Below, piece after piece: positions 14,949-44,222 of a stretch of DNA of 64,000 nt. The stretch's first letter is position 1; every line of letters begins with the position of its first letter. The stretch comes from Fistulifera solaris (lineage: Eukaryota): the NCBI GenBank assembly GCA_030295235.1, contig AP026162.1:1550001-1614000 (forward strand), written 5' to 3'. The notes below the pieces were generated by a model that made no database searches, was not told the origin of the DNA, and saw only the letters and a program-made list of their open reading frames with translations. The translations under genes were made by a program, and so were the position numbers.

Positions 14949-15320
14949 GGTGGTCCAGACAATCTGGACCAGTTGTATTTTCTTTGTATTTTCACGTTCC
15001 CAGGAAATCTGGGTGAGCGGTGTTTTCCACTTGGTCCAGAAATCTGGACCAGTTGTATTTTCACGTACCCAGGAAATCTGGGGTTTGGTGTTTACACGTG
15101 GTCCAGAAAATCTGGACCAGCTGTATTATTACATTTCCAGGAAATCTGGGTGTTTGGTGTTCACACGTGGTCCAGAAAACCTGGGGCTTGGGATGTACAT
15201 GTGTCCAGAAATTTGGATTTGTATTTCCACGTTCCCAAAAATGTCGGCGTGTGTTATTTTTTAACTGTCCACATAATCTGGACCCTTTGTATTTACACGT
15301 CTCCAGAAATCATCTGAACC
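14949..15320. repeat. Minisatellite array 1 (~67-70 bp unit) with palindromic GGTCCAGAAATCTGGACC core
   Basis: About 5 degenerate units of TGGTCCAGAAATCTGGACCAGTTGTATTT..CCCAGGAAATCTGGG..TTGGTGTT.ACACG. Confidence 0.9.
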
Positions 15321-24153: not shown

Positions 24154-24311
24154 GATGTGCTATTGGTATAGTCTTTAAATTGTTTGCGTTTGATCACTTG
24201 TAAAGTTTGTTTGTAATAAAACAGAGCGGTGATCTTTGCAGTTTTTGTTCGTGCTACATTAAGGTTAAAGATACAGGTTGATGAAATATTGTTTTTCCCT
24301 TTTCGTTAGAT

Positions 24312-24397
24312 GCTACCTTAGCATAGTTGGTTATTGTACCTGATTCGTAATGCATCGTTAGATCAGGAGGTCGCGTGTTCGAATCACGCAGGTAGCT
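24312..24397 (+). tRNA. tRNA-Thr(CGT) with ~12-nt canonical-position intron
   Basis: Acceptor GCTACCT/AGGTAGC; anticodon stem CCTGA/TCAGG with TT-CGT-A followed by extra ATGCATCGTTAG; GTTCGAATC T-loop. Confidence 0.9.
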
Positions 24398-25352
24398 CTT
24401 TGCAAATTGATTTGCCAACTTTAAACTAGCCTAGAGAGACCTAATTCGCCTAGGTGCATTATTTTGCACCTTAGCTCTACAGATCAACTAAATAAGGGTA
24501 CACAACGGGTCCAACCGGACTATCCGCAGGGTTCGGCACCATAATTCATCTATTTGCACCACTTCTTTGCTAACCAAGGTATTTTCTTTCTAATGAATGA
24601 TGTGTAATACTTGAGGTTGCCCATGAGTCGACGCTATAGTCCAACCATTACTTGCTCGCACTCACTTAAAAACGTCTTTAAGCGTCCTGGAAGTTTGTCC
24701 ACAGCCCAGTTTCCTGCGGTGCGTATGCCCGATCTCAGCTGAGTTTTTCCGAGGAAATGGGTTCCTCCACACGACTTTACAATAGATTTTTATTCTAATA
24801 AAGTCAATTGAGGCCCAGGATCCATGAGAAGACTTGATCTTGCTCGTTCTCGCACACTAAATCATCTGCTATCGAAAAAGATTTCAAGTGATTGTGTCGT
24901 CCTGCCAGCCGACACAAGTGTTGACTATGGAGTAAGCAACCCTAGCTTTACTCCGAGTTTTAGTTTTGACCCATCATTTTTAACTTGACCTTGAAGTCAC
25001 CGTAGTCCGAATCACGCCGCTACCCTCAAAATAATTGGTCAACGAATAGATTAGTCTAATGGTCTTTCAATGCTGTACTGGAATACTTGTTAACACGACT
25101 GCTTTTACCTGTTAGTCATGAAGACTGCTACCTAACTTCTTTTGTTTTGCTAGTTTGGTACTATACTTGTTTGTTTAAAAATTTAGAGTTTATTGGCATT
25201 TCTTAGCTTTGCAATCTAATCATCGATTCAATACGACGAAATGCCTGCGTATCGTTGTCTTCCTTTTCGAGGAAATAGCACCTTGTGTACTGTAGAAATA
25301 AATGTAGTAGTAGGCGCCTTTTACCACGACTGCCGAGTGCAGACGCGATCGC

Positions 25353-28174
25353 TGACAGATTTATAATAAGATTGATTCCTGGGTGTTCATGACTGGACAG
25401 TCTGTTTGTCTGTCAGGTGTGTGTTTTGGGTGGTTCATGACTGGGAGTGAGTCATGAAGCTTGAAGTTGAAGTTGAATACCAGTGTGAGGGAAGATATGT
25501 TTTTGGATTCTTCTCTCGCTACGTCAGTGACCACGTCAGTATTTTGAGAAGGATGAGACAGCTTCTCATTTTCATTAGTTTTAGATAATGCTCACAATTT
25601 AGAAACCCAGTTGATAATGAACTAGTTGTCATTACCTCGTATCGAGTACGGTCAGAGATACATTTGCTGTGTGGAATCTCAGAGGGTTGGCACACCTTGT
25701 GAGAACGGTTGAGTCGAGTTGGCACACTTGACGAACCAGTGTTAGGAGAAGGCTGGCACGCCGGATCTTTATACTGAAGCAGTAAGTACGCGCATTTCGG
25801 TTGGCACGCCGGATTGTACTTATTGACCTATACGGCAGCGGGTGGCCAGTTGTCGTACTCTTTGTGTGTAGTGTGCAGTGACACGGTCGGGTCATTCGTT
25901 CATAGCGAGTTCGGGTGATTTTGACGTCTGTGCGTCGATTGTTGCGTGTGTCGAGTTACACGTGGAATTGGATTGTGTCGTTTGTACTCTCGCGTGGAGA
26001 GTCTCAAATTCTGGGAGCTATCTGTGCGCTCGGAATTTTGTCAGATTAACAGTCGCAAGTCTCTGTACTACTTGGGCTTTGTGATTGGTGGGTTTCCGAT
26101 GACTCTGGTTCTTTCTGAGTCATTGTTTCTCTAGTGGATACTCTTCGTTATTGGTGACGTTCCCTACTGTTCAGTGTGCGGAGAGACAGAAACACGGGGA
26201 GACACGATTTCACTGTACATTTGTCCTACTTGGTGTACAACATGATTTCTTTCAGCGTACTTTCGCGGTAAGAAACCGGGATTCAGGTTGAGTACTACGC
26301 ACCAACCTACTTTTCAGTGGGAAACACTGCATTTTCATTTTCGCTTGGTGAATTTACTGTGGAGCGGCACTGTGGGAAGTTATTTTGTCTGACGTACCTT
26401 CGAGAAGACGGGGAGTGACAGATTTATAATAAGATTGATTCCTGGGTGTTCATGACTGGACAGTCTGTTTGTCTGTCAGGTGTGTGTTTTGGGTGGTTCA
26501 TGACTGGGAGTGAGTCATGAAGCTTGAAGTTGAAGTTGAATACCAGTGTGAGGAAGATATGTTTTTGGATTCTTCTCTCGCTACGTCAGTGACCACGTCA
26601 GTATTTTGAGAAGGATGAGACAGCTTCTCATTTTCATTAGTTTTAGATAATGCTCACAATTTAGAAACCCAGTTGATAATGAACTAGTTGTCATTACCTC
26701 GTGTCGAGTACGGTCAGAGATACATTTGCTGTGTGGAATCTCAGAGGGTTGGCACACCTTGTGAGAACGGTTGAGTCGAGTTGGCACACTTGACGAACCA
26801 GTGTTAGGAGAAGGCTGGCACGCCCGGATCTTTATACTGAAGCAGTAAGTCACAGCGCATTTCGGGTTGGCACGCCGGATTGTACTTATTGACCTATACG
26901 GCAGCGGGTGGCCAGTTGTCGTACTCTTTGTGTGTAGTGTGCAGTGACACGGTCGGGTCATTCGTTCATAGCGAGTTCGGGTGATTTTGACGTCTGTGCG
27001 TCGATTGTTGCGTGTGTCGAGTTACACGTGGAATTGGATTGTGTCGTTTGTACTCTCGCGTGGAGAGTCTCAAATTCTGGGAGCTATCTGTGCGCTCGGA
27101 ATTTTGTCAGATTAACAGTCGCAAGTCTCTGTACTACTTGGGCTTTGTGATTGGTGGGTTTCCGATGACTCTGGTTCTTTCTGAGTCATTGTTTCTCTAG
27201 TGGATACTCTTCGTTATTGGTGACGTTCCCTACTGTTCAGTGTGCGGAGAGACAGAAACACGGGGAGACACGATTTCACTGTACATTTGTCCTACTTGGT
27301 GTACAACATGATTTCTTTCAGCGTACTTTCGCGGTAAGAAACCGGGATTCAGGTTGAGTACTACGCACCAACCTACTTTTCAGTGGGAAACACTGCATTT
27401 TCATTTTCGCTTGGTGAATTTACTGTGGAGCGGCACTGTGGGAAGTTATTTTGTCTGACGTACCTTCGAGAAGACGGGGAGTGACAGATTTATAATAAGA
27501 TTGATTCCTGGGTGTTCATGACTGGACAGTCTGTTTGTCTGTCAGGTGTGTGTTTTGGGTGGTTCATGACTGGGAGTGAGTCATGAAGCTTGAAGTTGAA
27601 GTTGAATACCAGTGTGAGGGAAGATATGTTTTTGGATTCTTCTCTCGCTACGTCAGTGACCACGTCAGTATTTTGAGAAGGATGAGACAGCTTCTCATTT
27701 TCATTAGTTTTAGATAATGCTCACAATTTAGAAACCCAGTTGATAATGAACTAGTTGTCATTACCTCGTATCGAATGCACGGTCAGAGATACATTTGCTG
27801 TGTGGAATCTCAGAGGGTTGGCACACCTTGTGAGAACGGTTGAGTCGAGTTGGCACACTTGACGAACCAGTGTTAGGAGAAGGCTGGCACGCCCGGATCT
27901 TTATACTGAAGCAGTAAGTACGCGCATTTCGGTTGGCACGCCCGGATTGTACTTATTGACCTATACGGCAGCGGGTGGCCAGTTGTCGTACTCTTTGTGT
28001 GTAGTGTGCAGTGACACGGTCGGGTCATTCGTTCATAGCGAAGTTCGGGTGATTTTGACGTCTGTGCGTCGATTGTTGCGTGTGTCGAGTTACACGTGGA
28101 ATTGGATTGTGTCGTTTGTACTCGCGTGGAGAGTCTCAAATTCTGGGAGCTATCTGTGCTTCGGAATTTTGTCA
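25353..28174 (+). mobile_element. Non-autonomous LTR retrotransposon (TRIM-like) in three-LTR tandem arrangement
   Basis: LTRs at 25353-26043, 26416-27109 and 27482-28174, each TGACA...TGTCA; two ~372-bp internal parts, each starting GATTAACAGTCGCA (PBS) and ending GAGAAGACGGGGAG (PPT); no gag/pol. Confidence 0.9.
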
Positions 28175-31011
28175 TGTGTCGTCGCCAATCAATTGCCATT
28201 TGTTTGGCACCCTTTTCCCCGAAAGTCTTGGTTGAGAATTTTTTGGACTTTTTCTTTCGAGCGGGTAGCCCCTTTATGGATTTTCTCACAAGCCAAAGCC
28301 ACCCAGTAAGAATCTACGTTGAGGTCTTTTGTAGCGGAAAACGCCCACAACTGAGCCGTCTTTGCGTTCTTTACGGTAGATGCGTTTTGTTGTTGGCTCG
28401 GTGGATGATATCTCGTGGAAGGAGATTTCCAGGCCGGTTGTTCTCGCGGTCTTGATCGGCATGATCGCATGTCAGATCGCTACCCAGAACCTTGCCTGTA
28501 TGTCGCCTCCAGGACAAAACGGCAAAAGTTTCGTGTTCGCCATTTTCTGCTGGTCCATGAAGGTGATGCGGAACGAGATTACCCCGTTAATAAGGCTAAT
28601 CCGGCTTTTGGATCGGAATGTACTTGCCTCGGCCGAATATCGATGACGTGACTTCCATCTTCGCTGACAAGAATATATGATCGAAGAGAGGGTGTTTCCA
28701 CCAATTGAATTTCCCACTGCTGAAATACCACGGAATGATTTCGAGCGTGGACAATTCGTAATATTTTCTGCAAGAAAAACACAAGTTGTAATCGATGAGT
28801 AATGATCGATGAGCTGAGAGCATTTGTTTTTTGCACAGCATTGCAAACGCGGAACGTACTCTTTGTCTTTGTTGATGTTGACCAGTCAGCTGTTATCGGC
28901 AATCGATATCCAATCTAAAACAACGACGCGATTGTCTTGAATGCTGCCACCACTGTGATGACCCAAATATCCCTCCGGTCGCCCGGCCTTTGAACGTGAT
29001 CAGCACTAAGTGATGAATGTAAAATGTCTTTTTGGTGTTGTTGCAGAGACTGCTATACAGATCGACTCTCAAATATCCATCGCCATCGGCTCGAGAGCTC
29101 AGCACCATGTAGGATCTGGAAAGAACATGACCATTGGCACCGGGCTTAGCGATGAAAGCCTCTCCTATGACTTCGTCAAACTCTGGGTCAAAGTTGAATT
29201 CACTTGAATTGGTCGCCAACCCTGGTCACGGCTGATGATGAAACCATTCTCGTGGCAGAGATAAACCGTCGGGCAGCGTAGGCGGATTCCGCTTCCATCA
29301 CACACAAGCCACGCTCGCGACTTGACCTTTTTCATCTCGGATTTCAATTCGATCTCCTAGTTTCATCGGTCCTTCTTCTGGTTTAGGAAAATAGTCGGTC
29401 CATTCACCGATATGGAAATCTGCAGACCCGTCATCCATGAGATTTTCATCAACCTCGTCCTGTGGCGGGTCGTTACCATTGGCGTCTGTTGCTCTTTCGG
29501 CATCTCTGTTACGTCCATTGAGTTCAAAAACATTGGATGGGATCGCTCTCAACTGATCCGTCACCAACCAGTAATTGATAATCCCCACTGGGACAGGCTT
29601 GTGCGCTTCTGGCACAAAGTCACTTGCTTCCTGCGCCGTTGCAAGCGGAATTTTGAAATCGACGTTCGCCGAAGAAGGCCTGGCTCCATCCTCTGGCTTC
29701 TGGGTTGTTCATGAAAGAGAACAAAGAATTGTTAGAGTGTTCACCGACAAGTCATCGCGAAGCAACAATTTCGACTTACGCCTTGAACCGCCAAATTAAA
29801 GCCCTAAGGTCCGGCTAGATCACGTGGACCGATTGGGAGCCGTTGATTTCCCAGATCCTCGATCTTATGGCGCAGCTTCTCCACAGCGTTTTGAAGTGAT
29901 GCAGTTCGTGCAACTCTTTGATTGGCCGCGGGCGGCTGCTGCGCGGTGTCGCCCGCAGAGGCAGCGGAGTCATCTTCAACAATAAGAACTTCGGCTTTGG
30001 AGGCAATTGCGTTGGGATCGCCACTGACAGTATGAGCCGGCTTCGAGCGGGTGCGTTGGGATCGTACTTGACCGTTAGAACTTCGGCTTTGGAGACGGTT
30101 GCGATAGAATCGCCATTGACAGTACGGACTTCGGATTTAGAGGCAGGTGCGTCGATACACTCGACTTTAGGGGAACTGTCGTCGGCTGTGACGACTTCAT
30201 CGTAGACTGTGTATTCGCTGGCACTTTCGATGTCAAGAAGCGACTTCCCCATTTGGCGTTTTCACCTTGTCGCTCTGCAAGGTCTGAAGACCTCGCCAGC
30301 GTTTTCATAGAGTCTCTGGCCTGAGTCATGCTCCGAGTCTGGCGTCGCCCAAGAGATGGCTGCTTTGAGTGGGGATCAGTTTCCTTGGCCCGAGAAGCAT
30401 TGTTGGAAGCGGAAGCAGCAGCGGTGGATTTTGATTTTGACTTGCCGGTTGCTGCTTTAGCAACAGAAGAATCGTTGGAAGCAAATGCAGAAGTTGCATG
30501 TTTCGATTCGGATTCGTTGATCTTCTCAGCAGTTTGAAAAGCGGGAGGCGTTATCGACGGCGTCATCATCCTTGAGGACAGAGAGAGCCGCTGAACCGGT
30601 TAGCGGAAGCGAGACTGACAGGCTTTTTCGATCCAGGAGAGTCGGACGAGGCCCGAAGCTTTGAGTTGTTGGTACCAGAGATCATGATAGTAGAGTGAGA
30701 AGGATACCGAGAAATGGCGGATAATAGAGAAGGCGGAAGCAAAAGCTGATGATGATTCACGGCAGGCTGGAATTTTTGTGTCTGCTGCATTGTCGCTGTT
30801 TCGAGCAACTTCTTTTCATTTCTTTCCGTGGTCGATCAGAGCTGTCAGCGCACTCGGCGGGACCTGTCGTTTTTGTGAATGGGGATCATTGCCCCTTGGC
30901 GGCTTAGTTGCAGTTGCCCTTTCACTGGAACTTTGATTGAACTGAATTTGTGCGCGTCGTAGCTTATTTAGAAGCGAGAGAAACAACAGCCCATTGTTCT
31001 TCTTCAAGCAT
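28175..31011 (-). pseudogene. Broken long gene: low-complexity N-terminus, NUMOD4-HNH, second HNH, AP2 domain
   Basis: GYLRVDL..KTFYIHHLVLITFKG.RPEGYLGHHSGGSIQDNRVVVLDWISIADN; LTCDHADQDRENNRPGNLL; GVFRY..SYWVA..KKFSTKTFGEKGAKQMAIDWRR. Several frameshifts and an in-frame TGA at 28886-28888. The 5' extent is uncertain. Confidence 0.75.
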
Positions 31012-31476
31012 GGCCGATGACTACATACTCTTTCACCAGCTAGTGAACGATTCTATGGACATAAAATAGACGACACTCACAGTTGAATTCAAATGAAGCT
31101 ATTTCTAACCAATTGAACTCCTATCACGAACGGTTTTCACTGGCCCGATACGGAACAGATTGAATGTATTGAAAATCGAATGCTAGATTTAAATGTGGGA
31201 ATGAATGAAGAATCATCATCGAACATCCGGTAAGTCATCGCAAACAACGAGCGGACGGACTACGACGACTCTCGACTCTCTAGAGTACTGTATGAGAAAA
31301 TGTACTTCCAATCTTTGCAATGATAACCTTACCCATAAGCGATAACGATAACAAACGTTCATCCCTTTTCAATAAAAAGGGTTGCGTCGACACACACACA
31401 CACCCGCTTTTATTGTTGCTGTTTTATTCTACCCTTACTCCGTATCACTGGGCAGTATAATATTCCTTAACACAAC

Positions 31477-34228
31477 ATGACATCAGGTTCATCTCATTCG
31501 TACTCGTCTCCTTCAATGTCGACATCCCAGAGACCGAAAGTGTCAGCCGTTCTCACTGGAGCGCCGCTCCTATCCGACGTCGGCGTCTTGTTAGATCAAC
31601 TGGATTCAGACGCCCGCAACTCTTCTCCGTTTGATCCAGTGGCATTTTTGAATAAGAACTTTGCCAATGAATCGATTTTGACCAATCAGCTACCTTATTT
31701 ACGCAAGGCCGTGGGCGAACGCATGGAAACATTAGATGATCGTATATCCACCGCCCTGCAGCGACAATCCGAAACCGCCGCCGCTACCCGCAAACACGTG
31801 CAAGACGCGAAAGCATCCGTAGCCGCGCTCGAAAAACGCATCAAACAAGTCCAAGAAAAGGCATCACAAAGCGAAAAAGCGGTTCTGGAAATCACTCAAG
31901 ATATGAAGCGCCTGGATTATGCCAAGCGTCATTTGCAGCGGACGATTACGACTTTGAAACAACTGCACATGTTGGTCCATGCCGTAGAGCAATTGCGCTT
32001 GTGCATCGCGCAGCAGCCATTTCCGGATTACAAGGCGGCATCGCATCTCATGGATGCGACACGCCTGTTGCTGAGTCATTTTAGTGGGTACACGCAGAAA
32101 GTGGAACCCATGCGCATTTTGTCTTTGCAAGTTCAACGATACGAAGCACAATTGAAAGATGGGCTCGTTTATGGTTTTCGAGTCGTGGCATTTGGGGCTC
32201 GGAAGGCGATGGAACTACAAGACAAAAAGAAGCCTGGAATTAAAAGTAATAGTTCAGCCGCAATGGACGATGATTCAGATCATGAGGAGACGGTGGCTGT
32301 CATGACGGTTGAGGATATGCAAGGTGGAGTTTTGGTCTTTGATGCACTTGGAAATAGCACGCGAACTCAGTTCATCCGTACGTTTTGCGAAGATTATCTG
32401 GAGGATTATGTCAAACAGTTTGAACCTCCGTCGCCCGATACAAAACCAGAACGACGCGTGTCGAGTTTCAAAGCAACCGAAGCAAAGACGGAATCAGAAA
32501 AGTCGTTCGCTGGTCTAGATCAGCTTGAGAAGCGATATTCTTGGTTTCGCGATTTATTGGAGCAGCAATTGAAAGCGAAGTTCAAGCGTGTATTTCCGGA
32601 CGATTGGAACTTGCAAGCCACTTTGGCAAGCATGTTTCTTGAGTTAGTACGTTCTGCTTAGAAGTTCATTGAATGTGCATTGTGATAACTTGTGCTTACC
32701 CTTCTCTTTACCGTTATTGCAGACTCGAGATCATGTCCTTGCACTGCTCGACGGTCCTCGAAAAGACGCAGACGCAACTAATGCTACTATTCTTTTGAAA
32801 GCACTTCAGAAAACAATTCTCTTTGAAAAGGACATTACGGCTTATCTTCAACGTGAATTCCATACCGCTTTCACAGGAATCGACTCAGCTGATGTGTCTG
32901 ATGCCAAGGCAATTAAGCCACTCTTAGGCATAGCCTCAGCAGCGTTTGAGCCGTACATGAGCCCTTATATCGGCTTGGAGGAGCAAAAGATGGATGAACA
33001 ATTGGTCGAAGCTCTTGAAGATCGTACCGTAGATACTAGAGGTGAACGGCCGGTCTTCATTTCCTCTACCAATCTATTTGTGACTATCAAAGGCAGTATG
33101 GCTCGGTGCACTGCATTGACGAAGGGCCATGCTTTCTTTTTGTTGTACCAAGCTTTCAAAGACTCTCTGCGCAAGTACGCTCAGATTTTAAACGGAAAAT
33201 TACCGTCAGTGTTGCCAAACTCCGCAGTCGTGGGCGGGTTATCGCTTCCTGGGACATTCGGAGGCAAGCAAGATCAGAATGTCGAAGCATCGTACCGTCT
33301 TCCTCCTGGGGAAGAAATCACCGTCTGTCACGTTATCAGTACATGCGATTACTGCGCTGATACCGTAGAGGCTTTAGAAGATCTGATTCGAGATACAATC
33401 GATGAGGAATATCAGGATAAAATTGACATGATGTCTGACCAGGAAGTCTTTCATGAGACAACTGCCAAGTCGATTCGGGTTCTGGTCTCTGGTCTTTGTA
33501 ACCGACTTGATGGCGCTCTCAAAAGTATGGCCGCAATGAATTGGGGAACCTGGGATTTAGTAGGAGAAGAGAGTTCATACGTCCGCATGATCCACGAAGA
33601 AATCCAGCCAATGGTGTTGCAAATTCGTGGATTACTTCCTGCATCCTACTTTCGTAGCTTCTGCGATAAGTTTGCCAGTCAGTTCATTTCTCTTTACAGT
33701 GACAATCTAATGCGCTTGAAGCGAATCAGCGAGCCGGGAACACAGCAAATATTGCTGGATGTGTATAGCGTCAAGACACTCTTGCTCAAGCTTCCGATCC
33801 TAGAGGATGGAAAGGGATCAAAGTCGGGTGCGGCAGGAACAGCCCTCGCCCCGGCTATGTACACGAAAATGGTACAAAAACAATTTAGCGGCATCGAGAC
33901 TCTTCTAAAACTTGTCGGTACACCCAACGATCTTTTGATAGAGAATTTCAAGGTTCAAACAAGCAATGGAAAGCCTATCGATCTTCAGGTTGTTATGAAT
34001 TTGAAAGGATTGAAGCGAAACGAACAAGTCAGTATGCTGGAAAAGTATGGATTAGATCCCGTAAGTGCGCTAAAATCAGTAACCTCCGGCTTGACATCGG
34101 CAACGATCGTGTCAGAACGTGTTCAAGCTTTGCAAGACCAAGGATCTACCGTGGCTGCAAAGATGAATTCAGATTTGAGTCAGATGCGACAAAAAGTTGA
34201 CGACTTCCGCAAGTCCTTTAGGCCATAA
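31477..34228 (+). CDS. VPS53: GARP/EARP subunit Vps53
   Basis: FDPVAFLN, SEKAVLEITQDMKRLDYAKRHL...LKQLHMLV and GTQQILLDVYSVK motifs; intron 32647-32722. Confidence 0.93.
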
Positions 34229-38597: not shown

Positions 38598-39232
38598 CGG
38601 TCCAGAAATTCTGAAAATCTGGGGAGTTGCAGAAATTCTGGACCAGTTCTATTGCATTGGTCCGGAAATTCTGGACCAGTTGTATATCATTCATACAGAA
38701 AATCTGGGCTGGTCCAGAAATTCTGGACCACTTGTATTTCATTCACACAGAAAATGTGGGGCGGTCCAGAAATTCTGGACCAGTTTTATTACATTCATAC
38801 AGAAAATCTGGGGACTTCCAGAAATTCTGTACCAGAAAATCTTGATCTGGTCCAGAAATTCTGGACCAGTTGTATTTCATTCATACAGAAAATCCTGGGG
38901 TAGGTCCAGAAATTCTGGACCAGGTGTATTTCAATCATACAGAAAATCTGGGCTAGGTCCAGAAATTCTGGACCAGTTGTATTTCATTCATACGGAAAAT
39001 CTGGGGCAGGTCCAGAAATTCTGGACCAGTTGTATATCATTCATACAGAAAATCTGGGCTGGTCCAGAAATTCTGGACCACTTGTATTTCATTCGCACAG
39101 AGAATGTGGGGCGGTCCAGAAAATCTGGACCAGTTGTATTTCATTTATACAGAAAATCTGGGCTGGTCCAAAAATTCTGGACCAATTGAGGTCCAGAATT
39201 TCTGGACCAGGAGTTCTGGGTTCTGGACCAGT
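38598..39232. repeat. Minisatellite array 2 (~52 bp unit) with palindromic GGTCCAGAAATTCTGGACC core
   Basis: About 12 units of GGTCCAGAAATTCTGGACCAGTTGTATTTCATTCATACAGAAAATCTGGGCT; same family as array 1. Confidence 0.95.
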
Positions 39233-39366
39233 TATTTGTGATGTGTTGTTGTATTTAATTTTGTTTTCTTTTGCGGGCCACGGATGATACTTTGAATTCA
39301 TTCATGTTCCATCATTGTTCACAATAAAAACGAAAGAAGTGATCTCATTGCAAACATATAGAAAGA

Positions 39367-43246: not shown

Positions 43247-43833
43247 CAATTGAATGACAATGGACGAAAGCGAGAGACGCAAAACGGAAGCCTTGGTTGT
43301 TCGGTTCATGACTGCTGTACAATCCAGTCTTGGATGGCGTAAACCAACACTCCCTTCCATAGTAAAAAATCCAAGGTGTCGATTCTCGGAATTTTCAACG
43401 TAAAAACAAATGAAACTTTCAGCAATTAGTTCAGAATCGTCATTGTTGCGACTTTATTTACCCGTAATTATAATTCTATTTGCAATTGAATGACAATGGA
43501 CGAATGCGAGAGACGCAAAACGGAAGCCTTGGTTGTTCGGTTCATGACTGATGTACAATCCAGTCTTGGCTGGCGTAAACCAACACTCCCTTCCATAGTA
43601 AAAATCCAAGGTGTCGATTCTCGGAATTTTCAACGTAAAAACAAATTAAACTTTCAGCAATTAGTTCAGAATCGTCATTGTTGCGACTTTATTTACAAGT
43701 AATTATATTTATATTTTGCAGTTGAATGACAATGGACGAAAGCGAGAGACGCAAAACGGAAGCCTTTGTTTTTCGGTTCATGACTGCTGTACAATCCAGT
43801 CTTGGCTGGCGTAAAACAACACCCCGCGTCATA
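43247..43833. repeat. Tandem repeat, 236-bp unit, ~2.5 copies
   Basis: CA(A/G)TTGAATGACAATGGACGAA.. starts at 43247, 43483 and 43719; third copy partial. Confidence 0.95.
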
Positions 43834-44222
43834 GTGTAGTGAAATTTCTAAGAGTCACGAAAAAATAGATAGAATGTACTATGACCTCTTTTATTTTTTA
43901 CAAAAATTAATAAAATTTCTGGAATCTAGTCTAGACAGAATTTCTGTCTGAATCAACACACCGAAATTCCAGAATTTCTGGAAGAAATCAAAAATCTTCC
44001 TTTGCACGCAACTACAGACTATACGTAGTACGGAGTAACAACTATAAGTTCTTAAGCTGAAACCTTATCCGATGTAAGACGCGCTCGGTTTGAAAGAAAA
44101 TTATTGCGAAATGAAGATGAAAAGCGATCAAAATGAAGTAACCAAGACGATGTCTATGGTAGACTTACGCCATTTTCCAAAGACGAAGGACCCAGAGTAA
44201 GGCAACAATATATCACCAAGCT

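Follow-up and report, generated by a model that had tools for sequence, protein, structure and literature searches.

A protein-less LTR retrotransposon of the diatom Fistulifera solaris and a diatom-associated Ty1/copia clade share a putative primer-binding site for a 5' fragment of tRNA-Asn(GUU)

We analyzed a stretch of 64,000 nucleotides from Fistulifera solaris (contig AP026162.1, positions 1,550,001 to 1,614,000 of the forward strand; referred to below as the window) and found at positions 25353-28174 a short, non-autonomous retrotransposon with long terminal repeats (LTRs), present in tandem form and encoding no protein. A block of 14 bases directly after the LTR end is the exact antisense of the anticodon arm in tRNA-Asn(GTT) genes, and the same block stands at the same junction in metagenome loci whose flanks are unrelated to one another. 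We consider it likely that this block is an anticodon-arm primer-binding site (PBS) for a 5' fragment of tRNA-Asn(GUU), and that the element is served in trans by copia-type helpers. The host is a diatom, since the best named matches of the EPSP synthase encoded in the window are all diatom proteins (81-92% identity; Pseudo-nitzschia, Seminavis, Cylindrotheca, Nitzschia, Cyclotella, Epithemia, and Thalassiosira).

The original prediction had taken the element for a copia element. Reading of the sequence from 24200 to 31600, together with a repeat search, corrected this: the element is not a coding copia element, and what spans 25353-28174 is a head-to-tail array, without an open reading frame (ORF), of a unit of approximately 1,065 bp in the order LTR-internal-LTR-internal-LTR. 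Its parts are as follows.

25353-26043, plus strand: LTR1, 691 bp, running from TGACAG to TTTTGTCA, delimited by sequence reading, repeat families, and inter-copy identity
26044-26057, plus strand: putative PBS, copy 1, GATTAACAGTCGCA, antisense to positions 27-40 of tRNA-Asn(GTT)
26044-26415, plus strand: internal region 1, 372 bp, without an ORF, consisting of the PBS, a leader, and a purine-rich tract
26050-26087, plus strand: predicted RNA hairpin, taking in PBS bases 7-14 and sequence downstream
26402-26415, plus strand: polypurine-type tract GAGAAGACGGGGAG, abutting LTR2, with one C interrupting the purines
26416-27109, plus strand: LTR2, 694 bp
27110-27123, plus strand: putative PBS, copy 2, GATTAACAGTCGCA, found by exact match search
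27110-27481, plus strand: internal region 2, 372 bp, with its purine-rich tract at 27468-27481
27482-28174, plus strand: LTR3, 693 bp, followed by the unrelated flank TGTGTCG...

All three LTRs start with TGACAG and end with TGTCA, and thus have TG...CA ends with short inverted termini. The two units are 99.4% identical over 1067 columns, and LTR1 and LTR3 are 98.6% identical over 696 columns. Direct terminal repeats, a PBS by the 5' LTR, as well as a polypurine tract by the 3' LTR, which are the structural features of an LTR retrotransposon, are therefore all present. With an LTR of about 691 bp, and a canonical LTR-internal-LTR copy that would measure about 1.75 kb, the element exceeds the size of terminal-repeat retrotransposons in miniature (TRIMs; less than about 1 kb). 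The 64-kb window holds no further copy of it, and neither ARAGORN nor Rfam detected a tRNA inside 25353-28174. Besides, no retroelement domain was found in the 16 ORFs that were scanned among the 32 window ORFs of at least 200 amino acids (aa), and all 16 look like host genes. Parts of the element are contained in seven sequencing runs, four of which come from one organism.

The window contains exactly two occurrences of the 14-mer GATTAACAGTCGCA, located on the plus strand at 26044-26057 and 27110-27123, and each copy forms the first bases after the LTR end ...TTTTGTCA. The original prediction had located the site at these two junctions and had remarked on the lack of the usual TGG there; sequence reading agrees on both counts, except that the end given for the site, 26058, is one base too far. 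Because the two copies belong to one repeated unit, they amount to one independent observation. Allowing up to two mismatches, shuffled sequences contained on average 0.46 matches to the 14-mer, and two or more matches were obtained in 8 of 100 shuffles.

The reverse complement of the site had been interpreted as the 5' strand of the anticodon stem plus the CTGTTAA loop of tRNA-Asn(GTT), and real tRNA genes bear out this interpretation. A scan of viral contigs for the 14-mer, with tRNA genes predicted by ARAGORN, gave at least 120 loci. The motif lay within a predicted tRNA in 65 of the 120 loci listed (66 genes, 46 distinct sequences) and had no predicted tRNA over it in the other 55. Among the matches listed, each of the 66 genes is a tRNA-Asn(gtt) with the motif in antisense orientation, and the 46 distinct sequences all read ...TGCGA-CTGTTAA-TC.... 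The complement of the site takes in the anticodon stem's 5' strand, all seven bases of the loop, and two bases at the start of the 3' strand, corresponding to canonical positions 27-40. It is, in other words, an internal tRNA segment that includes the anticodon loop and not the CCA end, as a PBS for a half-tRNA should be, with 66 genes to match it and no TGG at the junction. The 16-mer composed of CA and the PBS was found in six loci of the viral contigs.

We further observed the 19-base junction TGTCA/GATTAACAGTCGCA in 70 metagenome loci, which were chosen by the motif itself. When grouped at 75% identity over 60 nt of flank, they fell into 47 clusters that are unrelated both upstream and downstream, and the window element makes a 48th. 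A blastn comparison of the window unit with the 70 loci matched only 20-35 bases around the junction, with no further DNA similarity. Directly after the 14-mer the information content drops from 2.0 to 0.52 bits, the base being G or A in 42 of the 47 cluster representatives; since this base would find no partner in the G located just before the arm of the tRNA-Asn genes, the complementarity ends at 14. The window also has in common with one metagenome locus (L129) the border between tract and LTR, ...GGGGAG/TGACA. No tRNA gene was found in the 70 loci, nor was a second LTR end found within 2 kb on either side. Downstream of the site, 29 loci supplied 30 ORFs of at least 169 aa, and 20 of these had significant blastp matches, at roughly 20-45% identity, to ORFs of other loci.

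A connection of the site to copia-type proteins came from the 656-aa ORF that follows the PBS in locus L176, which makes up the N-terminal portion of 23 proteins with lengths of 1,249-1,934 aa. PF07727 (RVT_2, the copia-type reverse transcriptase [RT]) was detected in 21 of the 23, lying at residues 1357-1572 in the 1,870-aa protein P0001, and among the named relatives the nearest belongs to the diatom Nitzschia inconspicua. An alignment of 19 of the proteins (the four shorter ones, P0008, P0010, P0015, and P0023, were left out) gave a profile that matches the retroviral integrase catalytic core upstream of the RT with an E value of 2.1e-4, compared with 0.029 for a single sequence; D908 and E943, 35 residues apart, are invariant in this alignment. 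Judged by sequence, the elements that bear these polyproteins are of the Ty1/copia type. An invariant LVDRGANGG block (P0001 residues 546-557) occupies the place where an aspartic protease motif is expected. Simple patterns for the D[ST]G motif, the CCHC knuckle, and the HHCC finger found none of them in four polyproteins, and the first 650 aa or so matched no Pfam family. The viral contigs contained no relative of the polyproteins.

To these loci we can add a sample in whose selection the site played no part: a search of prokaryote genome contigs with the polyprotein alignment yielded 20 loci (L206-L225). They sit in metagenome-assembled genomes (MAGs) labelled as bacteria (Sphingobacteriaceae, Weeksellaceae, and others), one bin having three such contigs, and the presence of diatom-type copia polyproteins suggests that these are eukaryotic contigs mis-binned into prokaryote MAGs. 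An 11-base core of the site, GATTAACAGTC, directly follows ...CA in 6 of the 20 loci (L207, L210, L217, L220, L223, and L224). Five loci extend 100 nt or more upstream of where the ORF is estimated to start, and four of them have the core (L217, L220, L223, and L224). The remaining one, L218, is a fragment whose match is limited to residues 528-847. In L207 and L210 the junction lies downstream of the 3' LTR, meaning a tandem arrangement, and L208 carries a two-mismatch version of the site at an odd position. Relative to the full 14-mer, the six loci show no mismatch (L210), one (L207, L217, and L220), or three (L223 and L224), and every mismatch falls in the last three PBS bases, farthest from the priming end. 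The conserved part is thus the 11-base core, which is complementary to tRNA positions 30-40.

Across the 17 MAGs with copia-like contigs, the 14-mer was found only as the PBS of L210. A 9-mer search in two of these MAGs gave 57 matches, including one new junction (L246), with L242 and L248 repeating the junctions of L220 and L224; the 30 loci made from the 57 matches contained no tRNA. A survey of PBSs in related elements has recovered the site by motif in 70 metagenome loci (47 flank clusters) and its 11-base core by protein similarity in four of five loci with a visible 5' junction. The proposal that the family primes with a 5' half of tRNA-Asn gains support, at the level of sequence, from the complementarity and from the conservation of the site across families.

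In the mechanism that we propose, the element would have kept only the cis signals needed for copying by a helper, namely the TG...CA LTRs, the PBS, and the polypurine tract. The PBS, placed directly against the end of U5, would pair with the anticodon arm of cytoplasmic tRNA-Asn(GUU), positions 27-40, and not with its 3' CCA end. Because the PBS abuts U5 in copia-type elements, its first base should pair with the 3' terminal base of the primer, here C at position 40; an intact tRNA has no 3' end at position 40, so the primer would be a 5' tRNA-Asn fragment cut between 40 and 41. Such a cut would fall in the 3' strand of the anticodon stem, and priming would then proceed by the mechanism known for copia and Ty5. 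As the element encodes nothing, its gag, RT, and integrase would have to come from a helper, and these enzymes may be supplied by autonomous Ty1/copia-type elements of the large diatom-associated clade that has the same junction. The shared TGTCA/PBS border, together with the ...GGGGAG/TGACA border shared with L129, points to this clade as the source, and we infer from it the kind of helper that would mobilize the window copy.

Several observations weigh against this proposal. In the window, a target-site duplication of 4-6 bp was sought at the outer flanks (...GATCGC and TGTGTC...) and was not found, no ORF of at least 150 aa lies within 25353-28174, so that the gag-pol of an autonomous Ty1/copia element is lacking, and no helper element was identified. 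As for the metagenome loci, selection by the motif makes the exact conservation of the junction partly a matter of construction. Ten of the 30 downstream ORFs have no detectable relative among the others, and Pfam recognized no retroelement family in the 30 ORFs directly downstream of the site. As for the pairing itself, t6A37 and queuosine-34, which are usual in tRNA-Asn, would hinder it, and the predicted hairpin would hide PBS bases 7-14 in the free RNA. Two points on the host tRNA, given below, belong with these.

The lack of a target-site duplication and of an ORF, the single locus in the 64-kb window, the tandem structure, and the finding of no run recorded as RNA among those listed for the element would also suit a dead relic, that is, a local tandem amplification of LTR and leader that no longer transposes and in which the site has no function. 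We hold this to be a possible, rather doubtful account of the window copy, and one that is in no conflict with the origin of the site. Its LTRs are 98.6-99.4% identical, and the PBS and the tract are intact in both units. Besides, small runs from the source organism hold 56-76% of the words of the element, a count made without placing reads on it, which would fit several copies. With the target-site duplication missing, the array may be a product of recombination between copies.

Whether the arm of the host tRNA-Asn matches the site, as the original prediction expected, could be answered in part. We sought the host tRNA in the contigs of sequencing runs with the 74-base tRNA-Asn(GTT) gene of a giant-virus MAG (L068:274-347) at 80% likeness. 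Run X2 of the source organism, whose contigs amount to 51.6 million letters, gave two contigs at or above this level. One of them, with a depth of 220 and AT-rich flanks, is probably from the plastid. The other, of nuclear type with a depth of 26, aligns over reference bases 294-336, including the whole arm (301-314), with four differences whose positions were not listed. Its unaligned ends provide a pairing acceptor stem, a 3' T-stem strand ending in GCC, a discriminator G, and a run of TTTTT. Normal pairing of the T stem would require that its 5' strand contain three of the four differences, so that no more than one remains among the 36 other aligned bases; on the assumption of a regular T stem, the host arm would thus differ from the complement of the site at no more than 1 of 14 positions. 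The alignment across the arm does not go against the expectation, but it bounds the host tRNA-Asn instead of reading it base by base, and the leftover difference could be in the anticodon itself. Nor is the isotype of this contig proven, because its 5' 19 bases are also present in phage tRNA-Met (seven) and tRNA-Lys (two) genes of the viral contigs. The same 19-mer had no match in the prokaryote genome contigs. Runs X5 and X3 had no contig on the tRNA-Asn reference, which is no evidence of absence.

These two points would allow the site to bind some other tRNA of the host, an isoacceptor with the same stem and loop frame and a different anticodon (e.g., Lys, Ile, or Thr), at the cost of one internal mismatch: the sole host contig might have one of its four unlisted differences from the Asn reference in the anticodon, and the 19-mer that it has in common with the phage genes covers the acceptor and D arm. 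We regard such a tRNA as improbable, because among the matches listed the exact complement of the 14-mer occurred in tRNA-Asn(gtt) genes and in no other isotype, because the protein-selected loci vary at the stem-distal positions of the PBS and not at its anticodon positions, and because X2 gave just this contig and the probable plastid one at the likeness applied.

It is slightly less probable again that the block is another cis signal of the U5 border, for example for recognition of the end by integrase, for packaging, or for dimerization, that its match to tRNA-Asn is incidental, and that priming takes place elsewhere or otherwise. The terminal TGTCA of the LTR and two T-rich positions before it are conserved too, and the hairpin overlaps the 3' part of the block, as such a signal might lead one to expect. 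An incidental match would nevertheless have to be antisense over exactly 14 bases, in the correct loop frame, with two closing pairs, and at the very position required of a PBS, with no alternative PBS (TGG...) after the LTR; moreover, the same type of site has been reported as a PBS in fungal elements (PMC10886601; here and below, statements on cited papers other than PMC2806351 concern the parts of those papers that were available to us). Self-priming of the Tf1 type, in which the 5' end of the transcript folds back on the site and is cleaved to a primer, is known for some copia lineages (TAR) and for Tf1/Sushi elements (PMC6317226), and we dismiss it here as very improbable, since no observation in support of it was found, the 691-bp LTR contains no word of 7 or more bases of the PBS complement, and, of the 63 metagenome loci in which 300 nt or more of upstream sequence is available, none has a 9-mer of this complement within 1 kb upstream.

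Returning to priming by a tRNA-Asn fragment, we examined the hairpin that overlaps the PBS. The predicted fold of the window hairpin has a minimum free energy of -14.5 kcal/mol (z score of -2.99), and none of 200 shuffles was as good. In 47 sequences, consisting of the window and 46 cluster representatives, a mean length of 6.49 bp was obtained for the best ungapped stem with its anchor at PBS bases 10-15, versus 5.00 bp for shuffled downstream sequence, for which the maximum in 200 shuffles was 5.51 bp. The stem is also found with compensating changes in L223 (135-160) and L224 (155-177), and the hairpin sequences differ between families, in most of which the stem sets in among the final PBS bases. 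According to this model, the hairpin could leave the loop-complementary PBS bases exposed for a first contact with the anticodon loop of the tRNA. With modest confidence, we lean toward a broader statement, in which a large diatom-associated Ty1/copia clade (at least about 50 families in environmental DNA) and its non-autonomous derivatives would be fixed on a tRNA-Asn(GUU) 5' fragment ending at C40, together with a PBS-overlapping hairpin that exposes the loop-complementary bases.

Half-tRNA priming has been established for copia and Ty5, for which initiator tRNA-Met serves as primer through its anticodon stem-loop (cited in PMC10886601 and PMC6317226). The diatom site resembles theirs in that the PBS abuts the LTR and pairs with an internal tRNA segment across the anticodon loop, in that the primer it implies would be the 5' part of a tRNA cleaved within the anticodon stem, and in the superfamily, Ty1/copia. 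It differs in the use of tRNA-Asn(GUU) and not initiator tRNA-Met, in the diatom host, and in the end of the primer, which we place at position 40. The copia primer is 39 nt long. In plants, half-tRNA priming has been inferred for Osser, Bryco, and Gymco-II (Met) and for Bianca (Ile); as in our case, its use there is lineage-wide and restricted to Ty1/copia, whereas the tRNA species and the host kingdom are different (PMC6317226). That survey places tRNA-Asn, at 2% of the elements, solely under PBS types described as mostly complementary to tRNA 3' ends (PMC6317226). An internal segment of tRNA-Lys is used by the fungal FunCo1 elements (PMC5445492).

The closest parallel is in rust fungi. Kojima (2024) described Helenus TRIMs and Puccinia copia elements whose PBSs match the anticodon loops of tRNA-Tyr, -Ile, -Asp, and -iMet, and tRNA-Asn-GTT was chosen once among these fungal elements (PMC10886601). 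According to the supplement of that paper, the internal regions of Helenus-3_PGr-I and Helenus-2B_PSt-I start with cGATTAACAGTCGAA, which has 12 bases in common with the window site (PMC10886601). Helenus elements are likewise non-autonomous LTR elements with an anticodon-loop PBS, one lineage of them on tRNA-Asn-GTT (PMC10886601). They differ, however, in that their LTRs contain a tRNA-like gene, whereas ARAGORN and Rfam found none in the window LTR; in that the fungal site begins one base earlier and has the stem-side bases ...TCGA in place of ...TCGCA in the window; and in that their hosts are rust fungi, whereas the diatom-type site is a fixed feature of a large autonomous clade.

As for diatoms, the CoDi elements (Maumus 2009, PMC2806351) also have copia-type polyproteins, and the nearest named relative of those described here is from Nitzschia inconspicua; in the main text of that paper the word "tRNA" is absent and "PBS" occurs only as a buffer. 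In the literature covered, which did not extend to the supplements of PMC6317226 or to Table S3 of PMC4247016, we found no description of the site or of half-tRNA priming in diatoms. One supplement of PMC4247016 has no tRNA-Asn entry, and string searches of the literature for the motif on both strands, as DNA or RNA, returned no paper. The novelty put forward in the original prediction is consequently narrower and, in the literature covered, confined to diatoms, since anticodon-arm priming by tRNA-Asn-GTT had already been proposed for fungal Helenus (PMC10886601). The proposed mechanism and the tRNA are the same as in this one fungal case; what would be new is their occurrence in diatoms, fixed across a large copia clade.

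Standard LTR annotation pipelines seek complements of tRNA 3' ends and would therefore miss or discard the PBS of this clade; one diatom genome paper filtered its candidate LTR elements on LTRdigest PBS calls (PMC7466962). With its 11-14 bases, the site provides an easy means of recognizing a large set of diatom copia elements, as well as derivatives of these that encode no protein. Besides, a host factor in the form of a defined tRNA-Asn fragment is predicted by the proposed mechanism. In Phaeodactylum, short tRNA fragments that span the D loop and the anticodon have been noted without explanation (PMC4247016). The clade would also add, for stramenopiles, an independent example of a change in the tRNA on which copia elements rely for half-tRNA priming. 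If the mechanism is true, diatoms must make a specific cut of tRNA-Asn at 40/41, and the known stress-induced retrotransposition could be tied to tRNA cleavage.

Tandem arrangements were also encountered outside the window. A 12.5-kb metagenome contig (L128/L129) has two identical junctions 7,442 bp apart, with 99.2% identity over 2,449 bp, and in two MAG contigs the PBS is seen again after the 3' LTR (L207:2695 and L210:3048). These recurring LTR-internal-LTR-internal arrangements may reflect either genuine tandem elements or loops made through repeats during assembly. In another metagenome locus (L179:262-2271), what comes straight after the 19-base junction is not a gag-like ORF but one of 670 aa, among the 30 examined, that carries Mab-21 nucleotidyltransferase domains (cGAS-like).

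Around the array, ARAGORN called an 87-base tRNA (Ile, gat) at 24312-24398, some 950 bp upstream, which Rfam did not report at its gathering score; it resembles a tRNA gene with an intron, and its isotype is uncertain. Adjoining the array on the other side, the minus strand of 28175-30700 holds a series of broken reading frames (pieces of 70-174 aa) of no obvious family, which may be a decayed or intron-rich host gene. Elsewhere in the window, arrays of units of about 52 bp around the palindrome GGTCCAGAAATTCTGGACC are located at 38607-39236 and 15019-15316, and a separate 236-bp tandem repeat lies at 43247-43840.

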